Positions 43,116 through 54,902 of a stretch of 64,000 nt of DNA are shown one piece after another; positions within the stretch are counted from its first letter, which is position 1; the number at the start of each line of letters is the position of its first letter. Below the pieces are notes generated by a model. That model ran no database searches, was not told the origin of the DNA, and saw only the letters and a list, made by a program, of their open reading frames with translations. A program made the translations under genes and the position numbers. Source of the DNA: Bacteroidetes bacterium UBA6183 (GTDB lineage: Bacteria > Bacteroidota > Bacteroidia > UKL13-3); the NCBI GenBank assembly GCA_002422865.1, contig DITN01000036.1, forward strand, positions 8,246 to 72,245, written 5' to 3'.

Positions 43116-46100
43116 ATGAAAACACTTAAAACGAACTTTTACGAATTGCTGAAAAGCGATGAAACAATTTTTGACTTTTTCCTGCAATATGCGCTTGATG
43201 GCCTGATTTATTATGATTTAAAAAGTCCTGGAAATTCATGGATTAACGATAAACTGTTAAATGTTCTGGGGTTTGATGATGAATATAACATATCAAATCA
43301 TGACCAAATTTTAACTTCACAAATAAATGACTCTATTAATCTGCTAAGATTAAAAAAACACAATACAACTGAACTTCATTTCAAACATAAAAGTGGCAAG
43401 TCTGTTTGGATGGAAACCCGAAGTATTTTTTATGAGCCAAACAAATTAATACTTGCCCTAAGAAACATAACTCAAAGCAAAGAACGTGAACTTATTTTAG
43501 ATAGCTGTAATCAACAAGCGCATATTGGATACTGGGAAATTGACGTATTAGCTGGCACTAAGCCAGTTTGGAGTAGCGTAACTAGAGAAATACATGAGGT
43601 AGATGCTAATTATGAACCATTATTAGAAAATGCCATCTTGTTTTATAGAGAAGGCAGTTGTCGAGAGCTAATTTCAGAACTATACAATCGCGCAGTTAGT
43701 GAAGGTACACCATATTTAGTAGAACTTGAAATAGTAACCGCCAAAGGCAATATAAAATGGGTTAAAACAACATGTGTTCCAGAATTTATTGACGGTAAAT
43801 GTATAAGAACTTATGGAACATTTCAGGATATTACCAATGAAAAAAACTTGACCCGACAACTAGAGGAAGAAAAAGTTAAGTTGAGTAATGCTATTGATGG
43901 TGCCAGAATTGCAACTTGGGAATGGAATGTACAAACAGGCACAACTGTTTTTAACAAGCGATGGGCAGAAATGTTAGGATACACCCTTGATGAGCTTGCT
44001 CCTGTTAGTATTAATACATGGCTTAATTTAGCCCATCCTGATGATTTAAAAAAATCTGAAAAACTTTTGAACGACTGTTTCAGTAAAAAATCAGCCTATT
44101 ATGAAGGTGAGTTTCGTATGAAACATAAAAATGGAGATTGGATTTGGGTGTATGATAAAGGAAAAGTATTCAGTTGGACTGATGATGGAAAACCGTTAAT
44201 GATGTATGGTATCCACCTTGATATTACAGAAAAGATTAATGAAATTGACCAATACATAGGTTTTATAAAACACGCTCCATCGGCAATTGCAATGTTTGAT
44301 ATTGATATGAGATATATGGCGGTATCAGAGCAGTGGGTTAAAGACTATGGATTAAAAGACGTATCTGAAGTAATTGGTAAAACTCATTATGAATTATTAC
44401 CTGAAATTGGTGATGATTGGAAAGCGATACACCAAAAGTGTTTAACCGGAGAAAAAGCGTCAAGAGACGAAGATAAATTTACACGAATAAATGGGGACAT
44501 TCAACGGCTAAAATGGGCCATTAAACCTTGGTATAACGCAAATGCACAAGTAGGCGGTTTGATCATGATGACAGAAGACATCACCGAAGCCATTAACAAT
44601 AAAGAGTTACTTCATATTAGCGAAGAAACTTTTAGAGGAAACTTTGAATATGCATCAATTGGCATGGCCATTTCTGATAATACCGGAAAAGGAATAAAAG
44701 TAAACAAAACACTCTGCGATATGCTGGGATATTCTGCCCCGGAATTACTCGATATATCATTTGTAGAAATTACTCACCCAGATGATTTAGAAAAAGATTT
44801 AGCCTTATTAAAAAAGGTATCTGATGGAGAAATAAACAGCTACCAAATTGAAAAAAGGTGTTTTCATAAAAATGGAAAACTAGTTTATATCATACTTGCG
44901 TTATCAGTAGTTAAGAATGAGGATGGAAGCATCCTATACTACATCACACAAATGGTTGATATTTCTCAACTGAAGGATACTGAAAAAAAACTAGAACAAG
45001 CGCTATTACATAACCAATCTATTTTAGATGCGAGTACACAAATTTCTATCATAGGAACTGATGAAAATGGGATAGTGACTACTTTCAACGTTGGAGCCGA
45101 AAACTTGCTGGGATACTCAGCAGATGAGGTGCTGAATAAAAAACTTGTAACAGATTTTCATTTATCTGAGGAACTAATTACGAAGGCAACAAAAATACAA
45201 GAAGAAACAGGCAAAGACATTTCAAATTTTGATGTATTGATTCATTTAATTGAAAATGAAAAAGCACTTGTAAGCGAGTGGACATACGTAAATAAAAATC
45301 ATGAACAATTCCCAATTTTACTCTCGTTAAACAGCGTTAAGCAACATAACAAAACTATTGGATATTTAGGTATTGGAATTAATATCACCGAGATTAAGAA
45401 AGCAGAAAAAGATATTGAAAGTTTGCTTAATGCCACTCAAGATCAAAACTTACGTTTACGAAATTTTGCCCATATTGTATCACATAACCTACGTTCGCAT
45501 TCCGGAAACATAAGCGCCCTTATTGATATTTTACAAGTAGAACAAAAAGTACTTGAAGAGAATGTAGTGTTTAGTTATTTAAAGGCTGCTTCAACCAATT
45601 TGAAAGAAACCATTGACCACCTGAACACTGTAGCGGCACTTAATGCATCTGGCACGCAAAAATCAGAAAAAATAAACATCAAACCACTTATTGAAGCGGC
45701 CATTAGCAATGTTACAGGATTGGCTTACGATGCTAAAGTTGCTATACAAAACTTAGTAAATGAAGACATTTTTATATCCGGAGATTTGGCTTATTTAGAT
45801 AGTATTTTTCTTAACCTATTAACCAATGGCATAAAATACCGCTCAACAGAGCGTAACAGTTATATTATTGTTTCTGCAAAACAAACAGATGAATACATTG
45901 CCATAAGTTTTAAAGACAATGGACTTGGAATTGATTTACAGAAAAATGGAAGTAAACTTTTTGGAATGTATAAAACCTTTCATAAAAATCCTGATGCAAG
46001 AGGTGTTGGCTTATTTATTACTAAGAACCAAATTGAAGCCATGGGTGGTAAAATTAAAGTAGAAAGTACTGTTAATGTTGGATCAATATTTACTGTTTAT

Positions 46101-46118
46101 CTAAAATTGGCACAATAG
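43116..46118 (+). CDS. Cytoplasmic multi-PAS sensor histidine kinase (orphan)
   Basis: About six PAS/PAC repeats (e.g. HPDD..FRMKHKNGDWIW); SHNLRSH, NLLTNGIKY, DNGLG, RGVGL; no TM; ATG 43116 preferred. Confidence 0.9.
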   Translation: MKTLKTNFYELLKSDETIFDFFLQYALDGLIYYDLKSPGNSWINDKLLNVLGFDDEYNISNHDQILTSQINDSINLLRLKKHNTTELHFKHKSGKSVWMETRSIFYEPNKLILALRNITQSKERELILDSCNQQAHIGYWEIDVLAGTKPVWSSVTREIHEVDANYEPLLENAILFYREGSCRELISELYNRAVSEGTPYLVELEIVTAKGNIKWVKTTCVPEFIDGKCIRTYGTFQDITNEKNLTRQLEEEKVKLSNAIDGARIATWEWNVQTGTTVFNKRWAEMLGYTLDELAPVSINTWLNLAHPDDLKKSEKLLNDCFSKKSAYYEGEFRMKHKNGDWIWVYDKGKVFSWTDDGKPLMMYGIHLDITEKINEIDQYIGFIKHAPSAIAMFDIDMRYMAVSEQWVKDYGLKDVSEVIGKTHYELLPEIGDDWKAIHQKCLTGEKASRDEDKFTRINGDIQRLKWAIKPWYNANAQVGGLIMMTEDITEAINNKELLHISEETFRGNFEYASIGMAISDNTGKGIKVNKTLCDMLGYSAPELLDISFVEITHPDDLEKDLALLKKVSDGEINSYQIEKRCFHKNGKLVYIILALSVVKNEDGSILYYITQMVDISQLKDTEKKLEQALLHNQSILDASTQISIIGTDENGIVTTFNVGAENLLGYSADEVLNKKLVTDFHLSEELITKATKIQEETGKDISNFDVLIHLIENEKALVSEWTYVNKNHEQFPILLSLNSVKQHNKTIGYLGIGINITEIKKAEKDIESLLNATQDQNLRLRNFAHIVSHNLRSHSGNISALIDILQVEQKVLEENVVFSYLKAASTNLKETIDHLNTVAALNASGTQKSEKINIKPLIEAAISNVTGLAYDAKVAIQNLVNEDIFISGDLAYLDSIFLNLLTNGIKYRSTERNSYIIVSAKQTDEYIAISFKDNGLGIDLQKNGSKLFGMYKTFHKNPDARGVGLFITKNQIEAMGGKIKVESTVNVGSIFTVYLKLAQ

Positions 46119-46211
46119 CTATTAAAAAACGAAAGTTTCTTCAGACATCAAACAAAGAATTTCTTTTACAAAACTTTAACGCAAAAGTAGCGTTAATTGT
46201 CTTATTAGCCG

Positions 46212-46219
46212 TAGATTTG
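46212..46219 (+). promoter_or_regulatory. -7 box (TAGATTTG) of the leader ORF / czc operon
   Basis: Exact TAnnTTTG 23 nt before TTG 46243. Confidence 0.6.
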
Positions 46220-46242
46220 CGACCTCATTAAAAGCCCCAAAA

Positions 46243-46539
46243 TTGGATAAAAGAATTAAATACCTATACCTTGTTGTTGTTACCCTATTGGCACTCAGCT
46301 ATTTGCTGCCAACCATGGTGAGCACTACACTTGTATTTGATAATTTAATTGAACAAACCACGTCTGAATCTTCAGACATGAAATTACAGAAAGAAGACCT
46401 AACCGATTCGGAAATAACAGCACCTGAGGAATGTTTGGTATGTGTTTACCCTCATCGTTGCATTACGCTAGATTACTTGATTAATCAAGCACCAAAAGAG
46501 CCTGTAATACAACAAAACACGCCTCCACCACAGGGATAA
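46243..46539 (+). CDS. Small membrane-anchored CxxC/PPP protein, putative regulatory leader ORF
   Basis: N-terminal TM, acidic linker, C64-x-x-C67..C73, TPPPQG* end; first ORF after the promoter. Confidence 0.6.
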   Translation: MDKRIKYLYLVVVTLLALSYLLPTMVSTTLVFDNLIEQTTSESSDMKLQKEDLTDSEITAPEECLVCVYPHRCITLDYLINQAPKEPVIQQNTPPPQG

Positions 46540-46608
46540 TAAACCCCTGCACTATTTTCTCTTGCGCGTAAATCCGTGCTTTCTATTTTATTAAACTAAT
46601 CAAACTAA

Positions 46609-49600
46609 ATGATTGATAAATTAATTACGTATAGTACACGTAGTCCTTGGACTATTGGCTTTTTGATACTAATACTTACTGTTTGGGGTGGATACTCCTT
46701 ACAAAAATTACCCATTGATGCAGTGCCTGATGTAACCACCAATCAGGTTGATGTAATCACCAATTCGCCTAATCTTTCTTCGCTAGAAATAGAACGTTTT
46801 ATTACCACGCCAATAGAAATGGCTATGGCCAATATTCCGGGTTTAATTGAAGTTCGTTCTAACTCAAAATTTGGAAGCAGCGTTGTAAAACTCATTTTTA
46901 AAGATGAGGTTGATATTTACTGGGCCCGTCAACAAGTTTTTGAACGCTTAGAATATGTTAAAAGTGAAATTCCAGAAGGAGCAGGCACGCCTATTTTAGG
47001 GCCGGCATCAACAGGATTAGGAGAAATTTACCAATATGTAATTCGACCTACTGATATAAAAAACAGCAAATACACCACCACCGAAATTCGTACCATACAA
47101 GATTGGGTAGTGCGTAGAAAATTACTTGGACTAAACGGTGTTGCTGATGTGAGTGGTTATGGTGGATTCACCAAAGAATATCAAGCCAAAATTAAACCGG
47201 AGCGGTTAAAATCTTTAGGCATTACGGTTGATGAATTGTATGAAGCTTTGGCTAAAGGAAACAGCAATACCGGAGGTGCATACATTGAAAAAGATAACAA
47301 AGCATACACCATCAGAGGAATTGGTTTAGCCAAAAACCTGGAAGACATAGCCAATACAGTTATTGAAACCAGAAACGGGGTACCTATTTTAGTTAAGGAA
47401 GTTGCTGATGTGGAGTTCGGACATGCCCTAAGATATGGAGCTTTAACCATGAATGGTGAAGGTGATGTGGTTGGTGGCTCAATACTAATGATGAAAGGTG
47501 CCAATGGTAACCAAGTAATTCTGGATGTAAAAAAACGTATGGCCGAAATTCAGGAAATGTTACCCGAAGGATTAACCATTGAGCCATTTGTAGACCGTTC
47601 TAAGTTAGTAAATGCAGCCATTAAAACAGTGGCAACCAACCTCATTGAAGGAGCAATTATTGTGTTTGTGGTTATTCTACTATTGTTAGGAAACTTACGT
47701 GCAGGTTTGTTAGCGGCATCTGTCATTCCACTTTCCATGTTGTTTGCTTTTATCATGATGAATTACACCGGTGTTGTTGGTAACATTATGAGTTTAGGAG
47801 CCATTGATTTTGGCTTGTTGGTTGACCCGGCCATTATAGTAGTAGAAAGTGTGGTACTGTTTTTAGCAGTGGCCATGAGTAAACGACTAAGAGAAAATCC
47901 GCATGCAAAAATTACGTATAAAGACAGACAAGATATTGTAATCGAATCAACCATAACCATTAAAAAATCGGTTGTGTTTGGTGGGTTGATTATTCTGATT
48001 GTGTACTTCCCTATTTTAACCTTACAAGGTGTAGAAGGAAAAATGTTCAGCCCAATGGCTAAAACTGTTGGTTACGCCATTATAGGTGCCTTAATACTGG
48101 CATTAACCTATGTACCCATGATGAGTGCCTTGATTTTACGTCCGGCAAAATCATTACATCATGATGATATCGGAGCTAAAATTGTAAACTTCTTTTTAAA
48201 AGGAATTAACCCACTTTTTAACACTTGTTTAAAATACAAAAAAGCAGTTGTAGCATTTGCGGGTGTGGTCATATTTGCGGGCTACATTGGTTTTTCAAAT
48301 ATTGGTGGCGAGTTTATTCCAAAGTTACAAGAAGGTGATATTTTAATTGATATGAATTTACCAATCGGAACACCTCTTACCGAGTCAATATCACAAAGTA
48401 ACAATATTCAAAAATTCTTGATGAAAGAATACCCTGATGAGATAGAAAGAATCGTATCTAAAATTGGTACATCAGAGGTAAAGGTTGATCCGCTTCCTTT
48501 AGAATCTCAGGAAATATCAGTGGTACTAAAAGACAAAAAGCATTGGACCAAAACAAAACAACAAGAAGAATTAGCCGCAATGTTTAACGAATCAATGAAA
48601 CAATTTCCGGGAATTATTTTATCCATTCAACAACCTATTGAAAGTAGGGTAAATGATATGATGAGTGGCGCAAGGACGGATGTTGTAGTGCAATTATACG
48701 GACCCGATTTAGATACATTGGTTAAAAAAGGAAATGAAATTATTCAATTGGTAAAAACTGTTCCCGGTGCTGTTGATGTGCAGGAGAATAAAGTATTTGG
48801 CTTGCCGCAAATTAACATTGAGTACGACAGAAAAGCCATGGCCTTGTATGGTGTAAAAGTTGAACAAGTAAACCGTGCAATTCAAACTGCATTTGGTGGC
48901 GCTACTGCCGGGGTTATATACGAAAACGACAAACGTTTTGATTTAACATTAAGGTTGGTTGGAGAAGAACGTGTGAAACGTGAAAACATAGACAACTTAA
49001 TGATAGAGGCCGACAACGGACAACCTGTACCATTAAAAGAATTGGCTACCATACAAGAAGATGTTGGACCATCAGAAATTGGACACGAAGGCCTACAACG
49101 TAGGGTTAATCTAGGTTTTAATGTACGTGGACGTGATTTGGAAAGTGTGGTAAACGATGTAATGAAATTAGTGGATAGCAAAGTTCAATTACCGGAAAAT
49201 TACCGCGTAACTTATGGTGGTGAGTTCGAAAACTTTAGTCGTGCCAAAGGCACATTAGCCATCGTTGTTCCAATTTCGTTGCTCATTATTTTAGGATTAT
49301 TGTATCTAACATTTGGCAACTTTAAAGACAGTTTGCTCATTTATTCTGTAGTTCCTTTATCGGCAGTTGGTGGTGTTTTATCTTTACTTATACGTGATAT
49401 GAATTTTAGTATATCTGCAGGTGTTGGATTTATTGCCTTGTTTGGTGTGGCCGTGTTAAACGGAATTTTATTGGTGAGCCATTTTAACCATTTGGGTACA
49501 CTGGGCATTAACGATTTAGACCAACGCGTAAAACAAGGATTACAAGAACGCATCAGGCCGGTGTTGATGACATCATTAGTAGCCGCATTAGGGTTTATGC

Positions 49601-49761
49601 CTATGGCATTATCTAACAGTGTAGGGGCCGAAGTACAAAAGCCGCTGGCAACAGTTGTTATTGGTGGATTAATTATTTCTACAGCATTAACCTTATTTGT
49701 GCTTCCTGTACTTTATACCCTATTTACCAAAAAAGTAACCATCACTAATCCTGAGAAATAA
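46609..49761 (+). CDS. czcA: CzcA/CusA-family heavy-metal efflux RND transporter (CzcA type)
   Basis: PIDAVPD, GAIDFGLLVD, EGKMFSPMA, RIRPVLMTSLVAALGFMPMA, EVQKPLATVVIGG. Confidence 0.9.
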   Translation: MIDKLITYSTRSPWTIGFLILILTVWGGYSLQKLPIDAVPDVTTNQVDVITNSPNLSSLEIERFITTPIEMAMANIPGLIEVRSNSKFGSSVVKLIFKDEVDIYWARQQVFERLEYVKSEIPEGAGTPILGPASTGLGEIYQYVIRPTDIKNSKYTTTEIRTIQDWVVRRKLLGLNGVADVSGYGGFTKEYQAKIKPERLKSLGITVDELYEALAKGNSNTGGAYIEKDNKAYTIRGIGLAKNLEDIANTVIETRNGVPILVKEVADVEFGHALRYGALTMNGEGDVVGGSILMMKGANGNQVILDVKKRMAEIQEMLPEGLTIEPFVDRSKLVNAAIKTVATNLIEGAIIVFVVILLLLGNLRAGLLAASVIPLSMLFAFIMMNYTGVVGNIMSLGAIDFGLLVDPAIIVVESVVLFLAVAMSKRLRENPHAKITYKDRQDIVIESTITIKKSVVFGGLIILIVYFPILTLQGVEGKMFSPMAKTVGYAIIGALILALTYVPMMSALILRPAKSLHHDDIGAKIVNFFLKGINPLFNTCLKYKKAVVAFAGVVIFAGYIGFSNIGGEFIPKLQEGDILIDMNLPIGTPLTESISQSNNIQKFLMKEYPDEIERIVSKIGTSEVKVDPLPLESQEISVVLKDKKHWTKTKQQEELAAMFNESMKQFPGIILSIQQPIESRVNDMMSGARTDVVVQLYGPDLDTLVKKGNEIIQLVKTVPGAVDVQENKVFGLPQINIEYDRKAMALYGVKVEQVNRAIQTAFGGATAGVIYENDKRFDLTLRLVGEERVKRENIDNLMIEADNGQPVPLKELATIQEDVGPSEIGHEGLQRRVNLGFNVRGRDLESVVNDVMKLVDSKVQLPENYRVTYGGEFENFSRAKGTLAIVVPISLLIILGLLYLTFGNFKDSLLIYSVVPLSAVGGVLSLLIRDMNFSISAGVGFIALFGVAVLNGILLVSHFNHLGTLGINDLDQRVKQGLQERIRPVLMTSLVAALGFMPMALSNSVGAEVQKPLATVVIGGLIISTALTLFVLPVLYTLFTKKVTITNPEK

Positions 49762-49766
49762 ACAGC

Positions 49767-50960
49767 ATGAGAGTTTTAATGATTACCCTATTAACCTGGG
49801 CTGGTTTTGCGGCATTTGCACAACAAAACAACAGCAGTTTAAGTAGACCCAAAGCATTGCAGCTTGCACAAGAAAAAAATCCGCAAGTAAAATTAGCCAA
49901 CCTAAAAAAAGAAAAGCAACAGGCACTTAAAGCCTTTTCGCTAACTGTAGCCTCACCAGAAATTATTTTTGAGGCACCAACTTCAACCGAATTACGTCCG
50001 GGTATTCTACAATCATTTGATTTTCCAACTACCTACATCAGAAAGTATCAGTCGCAAAGCCAACAGATATTGATGGCCGAAACTGAGAAACAAATTACAC
50101 TTAACCAACTGCGTTATCAGGTAAACACAACCTACAACGAGATGCAATATTTGCGTGAGGTATTTGCATCATACCAACAACAAGATTCGTTATTGGAAGA
50201 TGTGGTTGAAGTGACCAATGTGAGATTAGAAGTAGGACAAATTTCTAACCTGGAGAAACTAAATGCCGAATCGCAATACCGAGAGGTTAAATACCAACTC
50301 GACCAAGTAAAATCAAAACTGCGCACAGCTCGGGTTCACATGAGTTTACTTACCGGTAACCCATCAGACACAAGCTTAACTGCTGCCGATGAGTTTGTTA
50401 AACTTGCCATACCAAACGGTGTTGCCAATACCGATGATGCGTTTAACAGCAATCCTCTAACCGCATATTACGAGCAAAACAAAAAGCTGCAACATTTACA
50501 GCTTAAGCAAAATCAAAGTTATTGGTTTCCGAGTTTAATTGTGGGCTACTTAAACCAAGGTGCATCAAACTCACCCATGCAATACCGCATGCGTTATGGC
50601 TTTACGTTTCCATTGTGGTTTTGGAGCAATACATCACAAGTTAAAGCCGCACGCAAAAATGTAAGTATTGCCGATCAGCAATCGGTATTAAACCAATACG
50701 ATTTAAAAGGCAACTACGCACAAGCATTATCGGAGTTAAGGCAATTTACCGAAGCGCTAAACTATTTTGAACAAACAGCACTTCCGCAAGCACAAGAAAT
50801 ATCAATAACGGCTAAAGAAGGATACCGACTTGGTAGTATTGGTTATTACAATTACTTGTTAAACCTTCAACAAGTAATTAAGATTAGACTTGGATATTTA
50901 GAGGCATTAAAAAATTACAACCAAGCCATTTTCACCATTCAATATTTAAGAGGAGAATAA
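49767..50960 (+). CDS. TolC/CzcC-family outer-membrane efflux protein
   Basis: Signal peptide, helical repeats, C-terminal 'YRLGSIGYYNYL..Q' pattern; position in the operon. Confidence 0.85.
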   Translation: MRVLMITLLTWAGFAAFAQQNNSSLSRPKALQLAQEKNPQVKLANLKKEKQQALKAFSLTVASPEIIFEAPTSTELRPGILQSFDFPTTYIRKYQSQSQQILMAETEKQITLNQLRYQVNTTYNEMQYLREVFASYQQQDSLLEDVVEVTNVRLEVGQISNLEKLNAESQYREVKYQLDQVKSKLRTARVHMSLLTGNPSDTSLTAADEFVKLAIPNGVANTDDAFNSNPLTAYYEQNKKLQHLQLKQNQSYWFPSLIVGYLNQGASNSPMQYRMRYGFTFPLWFWSNTSQVKAARKNVSIADQQSVLNQYDLKGNYAQALSELRQFTEALNYFEQTALPQAQEISITAKEGYRLGSIGYYNYLLNLQQVIKIRLGYLEALKNYNQAIFTIQYLRGE

Positions 50961-50965
50961 CAACA

Positions 50966-52129
50966 ATGAGAAATATATTTATAGCATATAGCCTAGTGAT
51001 GATTTTAGCAGCATGTGGCAACAGCCCAAAAACTGAAACAACTGCAGAAATAACTGCAATAGACAGCGACTCGATAACACTTACCCAACAACAACTTAAT
51101 GGTGTAAATGTGAAGTTCGCACAATTTACACCACGCTTAATTAAACCCGTTATACATGCCAACGGGGCAATTAAATTATTACCCGAAAGCAAGGCAGAAG
51201 TGAGTTCTCACATTAGTGGTAAAGTTGAGCGTATTTATGTGCGCGAAGGGATGTATGTAAAAAAAGATCAAGTACTCATCAGCATAAGTAGTTTTGATGT
51301 GCTTGAATTACAAAACGAATATGTATCAGCCAAAAACGAAACCGAATTTCAGCTTATCGAATTTGAACGCCAATCGGCTTTAAAAAAACGTAACATGGGT
51401 GTACTAGCCGATTTTCAAGCAACAAAATCAAAATACCAATCGGCTGTAATTAAAGAAAAAACCCTTAAACAAAAGTTGGAAATTATCGGTATTGACACCC
51501 GTTTGTTTAACGATTTAACGAATCCGAACATTCAAAAAACATTAGACATCAAAGCCCCATTTAGTGGTTACATCAATAAGCTTAATGTGCACGCAGGTTC
51601 GTTGGTACAAACCGAAACCATTTTGGCTGAAATAATTGACCCAACACAACTACAAGCCGAGGTTTATGTATACGAAAAAGATGCTGAATTGATGCAAGAA
51701 GGCTTACCCGTTACCCTAAATTTTGTACAAAAAGGTATTGCACCACTAAGCGGAAAAGTATTGTTTGTATCAAGGGCATTAGACCCGGTAAATAAAACCA
51801 TCACCTTACATGTTCAGTTTACACAGCCAAACAATAAAGAAATACATGCAGACATGAATATAAAGGCCGTGATAACCGGTATTTCAAATAGCAAACCATT
51901 ACTTGCCATTCCATCAACTACCATTTATGATGATGGTGATAACAAATATATTTTTGTGACAATGGATCCCTCAAAAAACCAAGTAGGCATGAAAAAATTT
52001 AGAATTGAAATTTTAAATGAAGACGAAGGGTACGCAGTTATAAAATCAATTCAACAGCTTCCTGAAAATTGTTGGGTTGCCGATAACAATGTGTTGGCCA
52101 TTGAAGCTGAAAGGAAGAAAAACGAATAA
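50966..52129 (+). CDS. RND periplasmic adaptor subunit (CzcB-like lipoprotein)
   Basis: Lipobox LAAC; SHISGKVERIYVREG; IKAPFSG. Confidence 0.88.
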   Translation: MRNIFIAYSLVMILAACGNSPKTETTAEITAIDSDSITLTQQQLNGVNVKFAQFTPRLIKPVIHANGAIKLLPESKAEVSSHISGKVERIYVREGMYVKKDQVLISISSFDVLELQNEYVSAKNETEFQLIEFERQSALKKRNMGVLADFQATKSKYQSAVIKEKTLKQKLEIIGIDTRLFNDLTNPNIQKTLDIKAPFSGYINKLNVHAGSLVQTETILAEIIDPTQLQAEVYVYEKDAELMQEGLPVTLNFVQKGIAPLSGKVLFVSRALDPVNKTITLHVQFTQPNNKEIHADMNIKAVITGISNSKPLLAIPSTTIYDDGDNKYIFVTMDPSKNQVGMKKFRIEILNEDEGYAVIKSIQQLPENCWVADNNVLAIEAERKKNE

Positions 52130-52130
52130 C

Positions 52131-52682
52131 TTATTTGGCAGTTGGATATTTACGGTGTTTGGTAATGTTATTAAAAAACATGGCTACTAAAAACAAAATA
52201 AGTACACCAACCAATACCGGATTAATCAAATAAAAATATCCTAATCCACGAATTTTTTCGCTGCCAATAATGGCTATTAAAGCAGTAGCTCCACCGGGAG
52301 GATGAAGTGTTTTGGTGATTTGCATAGCCACAATACTTAATGATACCGAAAGTGCTGCTGCTAACCAAATTTCGTTGGGTAAAAGCATACAAACTGTAAC
52401 ACCGATAAATGCACTGATGAGGTGACCGCCAATTAAATTTCGGGGTTGAGCCAACGGACTATTAATAACACCATATACCAAAACAGATGATGCACCAAAA
52501 GAACCAATTAAAAATAAATTATCATTTAAAATGAAATATTTACTGTTGATGAAACCAATGATACCAATACCGAAAAATGCCCCCAAAAAAGTTAACAGGT
52601 GTTCTTTGGTATCAATCAATGTTTCCTTGTATAAAACGTATTTTGCCTTACGGTAATTACGCTTAATTTTTTTCATTGCCAT
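52131..52682 (-). CDS. HPP-family membrane protein
   Basis: SFGASSVL..SPLAQPRNLIGGH..TLHPPGGATAL. Confidence 0.92.
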   Translation of the reverse strand: MAMKKIKRNYRKAKYVLYKETLIDTKEHLLTFLGAFFGIGIIGFINSKYFILNDNLFLIGSFGASSVLVYGVINSPLAQPRNLIGGHLISAFIGVTVCMLLPNEIWLAAALSVSLSIVAMQITKTLHPPGGATALIAIIGSEKIRGLGYFYLINPVLVGVLILFLVAMFFNNITKHRKYPTAK

Positions 52683-54500: not shown

Positions 54501-54902
54501 ATGATGACATTAAATGAAAAAGACTACAACCGTTTAATAGCTGCGATTAAACAATTACGCATGAGTGCGGTTGGTAACAGCAACATAAAAAGTTTAGCAG
54601 AGAACTTAAAAGATGCGCAGGTCATTCCATCGGATAAAACACCTGAAGATTTAATTACCATGAACTCAAAAGTGTTATTAAAACGAATGGACAATAACCA
54701 AGATATGGAAGTATCAGTCGTTTATCACGATGATGCTGACATCAAATCGAAAAAGGTATCTGTTTTTGCACCAATGGGTATTGCCCTATTGGGCAAACGC
54801 GAGCAACAAGTAATTAACTGTAACCTACCTAACGGCAATATTTCTTACATGGTAAGTAAGCTACTCTATCAACCCGAAGCTGCAGGTGATTTGAATTTGT
54901 AA
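54501..54902 (+). CDS. rnk: Rnk / GreA-GreB-family regulator
   Basis: DLITMNSKV, VSVFAPMGIALLG, YQPEAAGD. Confidence 0.88.
   Translation: MMTLNEKDYNRLIAAIKQLRMSAVGNSNIKSLAENLKDAQVIPSDKTPEDLITMNSKVLLKRMDNNQDMEVSVVYHDDADIKSKKVSVFAPMGIALLGKREQQVINCNLPNGNISYMVSKLLYQPEAAGDLNL

Follow-up and report, generated by a model that had tools for sequence, protein, structure and literature searches.

The locus described here raises the question of whether a small open reading frame (ORF) lying directly in front of a heavy-metal efflux operon of a Bacteroidota bacterium is a regulatory leader, the translation of which would control the pump genes behind it. The window (the whole stretch of 64,000 nucleotides that was analyzed) derives from Bacteroidetes bacterium UBA6183, and a first-pass annotation had proposed that this ORF encodes a metal-sensing stalling peptide, with a CxxC motif as its sensor and a C-terminal polyproline as its arrest site. 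The arrest-leader principle itself is already known. In the published model of CutF, the nascent chain is exported during its translation and the ribosome stalls at a C-terminal PPP once copper has bound to the exported part; the stall opens a stem-loop, and both EF-P and export counteract the stall (PMC9973294; bioRxiv 10.1101/2025.02.05.636593). In CruR of Bordetella pertussis, arrest at an RAPP motif controls Rho-dependent termination (PMC9426467). Such "transmembrane" metal sensing by a nascent chain has been shown experimentally for two proteobacterial DUF2946 proteins only, both of them concerned with copper. By bioinformatics, Ozturk et al. had listed Bacteroidota ORFs that resemble CutF and adjoin ACR_tran genes, and a search of the literature found no Bacteroidota experiments on such leaders.

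The efflux operon is encoded on the forward strand and has three genes: (i) czcA, for a heavy-metal RND permease of the CusA/CzcA family (46609..49761); (ii) a gene for an outer-membrane factor (OEP; 49767..50960); and (iii) a gene for a periplasmic adaptor (RND_mfp/CzcB-like; 50966..52129). The CzcA-type RND pump named in the first-pass annotation was borne out, as the czcA product reaches 1037.8 bits with TIGR00914 (cut-off 701) and contains the TM4 motif D400FGLLVD406PAIIVVE413, which is of the DFGxxxD...E type. Read against the HME-RND classes, this DFG...D...E motif, which is the only basis of the assignment, suggests a pump for the divalent cations Zn/Co/Cd/Ni. Behind the operon, and convergent with it, is a gene for an HPP-family membrane protein (52131-52682, reverse strand), and further downstream, at 54501-54902 (forward strand), is a gene of the GreA/Rnk-like type (nucleoside diphosphate kinase regulator); no link of either gene to the leader was seen.

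The leader ORF (46243..46539, forward strand) has 98 codons, begins with TTG, ends in TPPPQG-TAA and is separated from the czcA start by a gap of 69 nt. Its peptide reads L/M-DKRIKYLYLVVVTLLALSYLLPTMV...EEC64LVC67VYPH71RC73...QQNTP94P95P96QG and is followed by tandem stop codons (TAA TAA, 46537..46542), of which the closest relative uses the second. A basic N-terminus (DKRIK) precedes a hydrophobic stretch and then a net-acidic middle (12 D+E vs. 4 K+R). The best 17-residue hydrophobic window, with a mean Kyte-Doolittle value of 2.25, covers codons 10-26 (46270..46320) and is predicted to form a signal-anchor or transmembrane helix. Further on are C64-L-V-C67...H71-R-C73 (46432..46461) and the P94-P95-P96 triplet (codons CCT CCA CCA, 46522..46530), the putative site of ribosome pausing or arrest. 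Re-reading of the sequence thus agreed with the first-pass annotation on the ORF, its N-terminal helix, its Cys and His residues, its TPPPQG ending and the 27 residues that separate C67 from P94. An ending of PPP plus 1-3 amino acids occurs in only 4 of the 5338 open frames of at least 80 aa in the source genome and is found again in about 35 divergent homologues of the leader; the ending is therefore not a product of chance.

The family to which this peptide belongs is small and unannotated. Against Pfam, the window ORF matches no family at E<=1, and Pfam and NCBIfam scans with the window ORF and 18 family members returned no meaningful match. Whole-genome searches recovered full-length homologues, likewise positioned, in four relatives at the level of genera, 21 leader homologues were found among 5.8 billion proteins searched, and only 10 clusters came out of a profile search run exhaustively against 1.84 billion representatives, which indicates the limited size of the family. 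The first-pass annotation had made its proposal depend on translation of the ORF, and the pattern of substitution argues that the ORF is translated. In eight pairs of leader ORFs dN/dS is 0.11-0.40 at dS of 0.5-1.0. Codons 1-24, which lie upstream of any in-frame ATG in most loci, have a pN/pS of ~0.3 and are as constrained as the remainder of the ORF, so that translation would begin at the TTG. All 12 loci with available DNA have a TTG at the corresponding position, at protein identities down to ~20%. Gene callers disagree on the start of the leader and often choose internal ATGs, by which the transmembrane helix is lost.

The leader is inherited together with the pump. All 10 czcA orthologues from the GTDB family (>=84% identity) are preceded by an ORF that ends in PPP[KQR]x and a stop codon; in seven of these genomes the leader was already known, and the other three were recovered from the upstream DNA. 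These three ORFs are ~95-100 aa long, have a hydrophobic N-terminus and end in NAPPPKV, NAPPPKA and ATPPPKA, their other residues being too diverged for profile detection. The gene on the far side of the leader differs between loci (a histidine kinase, a 2-oxoacid dehydrogenase E2 or another), whereas leader and czcA stay paired, and no regulator is consistently linked among the leader-czcA loci that were compared. Two loci from Spirosoma/Spirosomataceae (L037 and L038), with czcA products 82-83% identical to that of the window, have no ORF of at least 40 aa ending within 250 nt upstream and constitute natural "leaderless" comparators for regulation.

Comparison within the family shows which features of the peptide are held constant. 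Across 18 aligned members the only invariant columns are E57 and P94-P96, with P23, Q38 and T93 nearly invariant, and the alignment has no conserved stretch of 7-10 columns. The proline codons differ from locus to locus (CCT, CCA, CCG, CCC), and the PPP peptide is constant. Between the PPP and the stop there are two residues in most of the ~35 homologues, three in a few and six in one. The ORFs are 95-100 aa long, and the distance from the end of the helix to the PPP is 65-74 residues in 14/14 loci; every member has a hydrophobic 17-mer with a Kyte-Doolittle value of 1.8-2.7. AlphaFold2, run with the family alignment, gives pLDDT values of 87-91 for residues 1-20 and of 42-63 elsewhere, and is thus confident for the N-terminal helix alone. 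All members carry [TI]-P-P-P, and the R-A-P-P motif of the CruR or ApdA/ApdP type is absent from them.

The Cys and His residues behave differently from the prolines. After the helix, family members have 0-4 Cys and 0-2 His, which are scattered and share no column, and CxxC is confined to the window ORF and its 87%-identical relative (P0004). The C64-L-V-C67...H71-R-C73 segment is consequently a lineage-specific element, and the CxxC was rejected as a sensor common to the family. Of the two motifs that the first-pass annotation had expected to be conserved in ORFs preceding czcA, the terminal PPP is invariant, but the CxxC fails outside this one pair of relatives.

The promoter region is consistent with an independent transcription unit. 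A -7 box of the Bacteroidota type (TAGATTTG, consensus TAnnTTTG) is located at 46212..46219 on the forward strand, 23 nt before the TTG, and such a box occurs 12-23 nt upstream of the leader start codon in 12/12 loci with DNA, which implies a very short 5' untranslated region (UTR). The leader mRNA is therefore predicted to be transcribed from a Bacteroidota promoter placed just before a weak TTG start. The gene upstream, for a PAS-rich histidine kinase, ends at 46118, and between its stop codon and the leader promoter is a palindromic hairpin (TTAACGC...GCGTTAA, perfect over 7 bp, 46176..46196) that is terminator-like on both strands. This hairpin probably terminates the histidine-kinase gene, in which case the leader-czcA unit would own its promoter.

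Between leader and czcA, the spacer is 66-80 nt long in 12/12 loci and contains, in each of them, one dominant hairpin that starts 16-29 nt past the stop codon and is followed by a U-rich stretch and then by an A/U-rich run to the AUG. In the window this hairpin is GCGCG-TAAATC-CGTGC (one G.U pair), which together with its U-rich tail occupies 46564..46592 of the forward strand: the stem-loop itself extends over 46564-46579 and is followed by TTTCTATTTTATT (46580-92). A terminator scan flags 46564-46579 with the tail TTTCTATTTT (4 sites vs. 0.6 expected in shuffles). The arrangement resembles that of an intrinsic terminator or attenuator, with a G+C-containing hairpin, a U-run next to it and no promoter before czcA. 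As no TAnnTTTG box is present within 46540-46608, czcA must be transcribed through the hairpin.

The conservation of this element was judged from per-locus folds with shuffles, from stems compared by eye and from covariation by inspection. Compared with dinucleotide shuffles, the spacers fold with a mean z of -2.3; all 12 values are negative, and 8/12 are in the lowest 5%. At least five distinct stem sequences are represented, which differ by subgroup (GCRCG; CATGCR; GCxGCAAC or GCxGGCTA; TCCTC; CAGTGTAG), and several changes keep the pairing. For instance, the G.U pair of the window is A-U in L034, an A-U pair of L022 is G-C in L118, and four positions are changed on both sides between the stems of L023 and L026. 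RNAalifold, applied to the 12 spacers as aligned by MAFFT, predicted no pairs, because the stems were misaligned. The hairpins are of low stability (-6.5 to -12.9 kcal/mol), in some loci (e.g., L022) the U-run is set apart from the stem, and the conserved hairpin ends 30-45 nt before the czcA AUG.

The first-pass annotation had pointed to this second hairpin and its T-rich tract, which hold up at the level of structure in 12/12 loci, as well as to a CAGGG...CCCTG hairpin overlapping the stop. The latter exists, but spans 46531..46549 (forward strand) rather than ~46531-46557, and it was rejected as a conserved element, since it shrinks to 3 bp in the closest relative. A further weak hairpin (TAATCA/TGATTG, 46597..46615, forward strand) encloses the czcA AUG; its AATCA half is kept in 10/12 loci, the remaining spacer having diverged. 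A NiCo/czcD-type riboswitch was excluded by an Rfam search of 46050-46750, which gave no match at E<=1.

The window family resembles the DUF2946 leaders in architecture, but not in sequence. None of 18 family members matches DUF2946 at E<=10, and the membership in that family considered in the first-pass annotation was accordingly dropped. Like CutF of Rhodobacter capsulatus, the window ORF is small (98 aa, below 150 aa) and stands first in a metal operon. It has a hydrophobic export signal at its N-terminus, a PPP near the stop (2-6 residues before it across the family) and a spacer of less than 100 nt with a stem-loop, the same-strand czcA following 66-80 nt on in 12/12 loci. What the window family lacks is the conserved Cys/His metal-binding motif (CxxxC in CutF). 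In addition, CutF is followed by a multicopper oxidase gene and the window leader by an RND pump gene; the CutF stem-loop shields the downstream ribosome-binding site, whereas the conserved hairpin of the window family looks terminator-like and does not cover the start region, over which only the weak TAATCA/TGATTG hairpin lies; and the window leader begins with TTG in a phylum without Shine-Dalgarno (SD) use, its N-terminal segment being perhaps an uncleaved anchor. CruR likewise is an upstream ORF with a C-terminal proline-containing arrest motif, arrest at which controls termination between gene 1 and gene 2. It differs in having RAPP, a CXXC sensor, dependence on Rho, a 162-nt spacer and an action independent of its signal sequence, whereas the window family has TPPP, no conserved CXXC, a spacer of 66-80 nt and a hairpin resembling an intrinsic terminator. 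The idea of an analogous Bacteroidota system therefore survives for the architecture, but not for membership in DUF2946 or DUF6660 or for a CxxC/H/C sensor.

Two other kinds of system bear comparison. CzcI of Cupriavidus metallidurans is small and exported, its gene immediately precedes a czc RND operon, and it has been proposed to regulate in response to metal (as cited in PMC9973294). According to PMC9973294, CzcI has no C-terminal proline motif; it would act as a protein rather than as a nascent chain. Pausing within a leader ORF before a terminator or rut site also alters read-through at pyrBI and tnaC and in E. coli reporters, in which a polyproline stall before an intrinsic terminator or rut site led to premature termination (PMC5021804). 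Those leaders are short and cytoplasmic, whereas the window peptide is predicted to be membrane-targeted, and the pyrBI ORF enters its terminator, whereas the stop codons of the window family precede the hairpin by 16-29 nt.

The closest parallel within the phylum is DUF6660 (PF20365). ORFs of this family lie directly upstream of czcA paralogues in the source genome and its relatives and end in IWQPPKLS, IWQPPKTA and similar sequences. One is found at contig C49:13672-13980 (1495-1818 of L027) and another just upstream of 35985 on C20; these end in SIWQPPKLS or SIWQPPKLA, each before a czcA paralogue. With two DUF6660 leaders and one of the window family, all three HME-RND operons have a leader with PP near its stop. 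The two families share their position and phylum, a hydrophobic N-terminal stretch that includes a conserved Pro, a structured spacer and the PP-[KRQ]-x-x-stop ending; when the first two prolines of the window family are taken as its PP, the register is PP + 3 + stop in both. However, DUF6660 is marked by an invariant core rich in Cys (C-x-P-F-x-x-C-x-x-C) and by W/F-Q before the PP, and neither this core nor the W-[QR]-P-P-[KRQ] C-terminus is present in the window family. Homology was not detected either by hmmscan, which gave no match, or by hhalign (probability 0.3%, E=0.19), so that the DUF6660 membership raised in the first-pass annotation was not upheld. A literature search found no paper naming DUF6660.

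To gauge the extent of the layout, 80 Bacteroidota czcA loci (L035-L114) were gathered by a search with the CzcA N-terminus. In 65 of them (~80%), czcA is preceded by a small ORF in which 2-5 residues lie between a PP and the stop, the usual form being [WF]QPP[KR]xx. Three residues separate the PP from the stop in 45 loci and two in 14, and in 54 the residue after the PP is K or R. The spacers, with a median length of 90 nt, are more stably folded than their shuffles (mean z -2.25).

Taken together, sequence comparison and analogy make it somewhat probable that the leader ORF is a cis-acting, CutF/CruR-like arrest leader for the czcA-OMF-MFP operon, which forms a sequence family of its own. 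The N-terminal helix would bring the translating ribosome to the membrane, and the ribosome would pause at the PPP, some 65-74 residues after the helix. The length of the pause would be set by EF-P, which is encoded in the source genome, and by the exported EQT-Q-E/D acidic stretch, which might sense metal binding or a pulling force. Whether transcription or translation goes on beyond the attenuator-like hairpin and into czcA would then depend on the pause beside the stop codon.

With a ribosome stalled at the PPP, residues up to ~45 would be beyond its tunnel and the translocon, and the conserved EQT-Q-E/D segment would therefore be exposed. The Cys region, at 22-32 residues from the peptidyl-transferase center, would still be in the tunnel, which argues against the CxxC as a periplasmic sensor even in the source genome. 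The first-pass annotation had placed the CxxC near the tunnel exit during the stall; the motif would then still be inside the tunnel or at its exit and would not reach the periplasm. That a ribosome stalled at the PPP or terminating melts the hairpin directly was considered and rejected, as the hairpin is 16-29 nt past the stop and the ribosome covers ~10 nt; the coupling step would therefore be indirect. Candidate output routes are (i) uncoupling of ribosome and RNA polymerase, leading to attenuation; (ii) access of Rho to the pyrimidine-rich stretch after the stop; and (iii) hand-over of the ribosome to the SD-less czcA start.

The evidence for an arrest leader is not all of one kind. In its favor, a non-homologous family, DUF6660, shares the position, the PP-near-stop ending and the structured spacers. 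Against it, the aligned sequences offer no conserved Cys/His metal site, the uniform purifying selection along the ORF would also fit a functional protein, the predicted hairpins are weak with a U-tract that is non-adjacent in some loci, and a PPP in the presence of EF-P may cause only a mild pause.

The main alternative is that the ORF encodes an accessory protein for efflux, small, periplasmic and anchored in the membrane, like CzcI or a CusF-like helper, with PPPxx as a structural or interaction motif and a hairpin that merely sets operon stoichiometry or mRNA stability. Selection at dN/dS of 0.1-0.4 over the full length, strict co-inheritance of the ORF with the pump and the conservation of the helix and of residues Y20, P23, Q38 and E57 would all be expected of such a protein. 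What makes this alternative unlikely in our judgment is that little structure is predicted outside the helix, and that sequence similarity has decayed to a level that profiles no longer detect, whereas ORF length and the PPP-x-x-stop ending have not changed. A protein fold would give no reason to expect the PP-near-stop ending again in a non-homologous family that occupies this position, and the weak TTG start with its very short 5' UTR is also at odds with an accessory protein.

An upstream ORF without a sensing function is the next explanation, and we regard it as rather improbable. Its translation would keep the mRNA open or feed ribosomes to the SD-less czcA start by coupling or re-initiation, the PPP would be a constitutive timing pause, and control by metal would lie elsewhere (e.g., in a distant transcription factor). 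The missing set of conserved Cys/His ligands, the short conserved spacer with its A/U-rich region and weak hairpin over the czcA AUG, and the fact that Bacteroidota are not known to use SD-led initiation agree with this explanation. It leaves unexplained, however, the membrane-targeting helix at a fixed 65-74 aa from the PPP and the conserved acidic exported segment, and no regulator that could supply the control is consistently linked to the locus. That the ORF is a chance or mis-called frame in a 5' UTR of which the RNA alone matters is scarcely credible, as the lack of any database annotation or family and the disagreement of gene callers on the start are outweighed by a dN/dS far below 1, a PPP that is invariant under synonymous codon change, a frame open for 95-100 codons in every locus and the absence of an Rfam match.

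If the arrest-leader reading is extended to the 80-locus set, a broader proposal can be put forward, though only tentatively: Bacteroidota may control most of their heavy-metal RND pumps by membrane-targeted arrest peptides whose pause site, a PP(P), lies three residues ahead of the stop. The window family would be the Cys/His-free version of these peptides, sensing divalent cations through exported carboxylates or through a mechanical or insertion signal, and its pause would be converted into read-through of the attenuator.

With respect to what was known before, the window family is unannotated and falls outside the known families both by sequence and by its lack of their Cys/His motifs. The distinct features that it adds are the conserved TTG start, the fixed spacing from helix to PPP and the terminator-like hairpin. 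The window locus is thus a compact and strongly constrained candidate in another phylum, in front of a divalent-cation pump and with no Cys/His site. Should sensing without Cys/His be confirmed, the leader would be a metal sensor with neither a classical ligand site nor a protein regulator; it would explain how efflux operons are controlled without a linked regulator, and it would show post-transcriptional control in bacteria that do not use the Shine-Dalgarno sequence. Annotation would gain as well, as such ORFs are currently truncated or missed by gene callers.

One locus of the 80-locus set is that of Siphonobacter sp. SORGH_AS_0500 (L036). In this locus, the CzcA of which is 81% identical to that of the window, a 124-aa ORF ends 111 nt before czcA; it encodes a signal peptide, an acidic run with HHTHH and the ending NTPPPQL, and may by its sequence link the window family to leaders with His-containing sensors.
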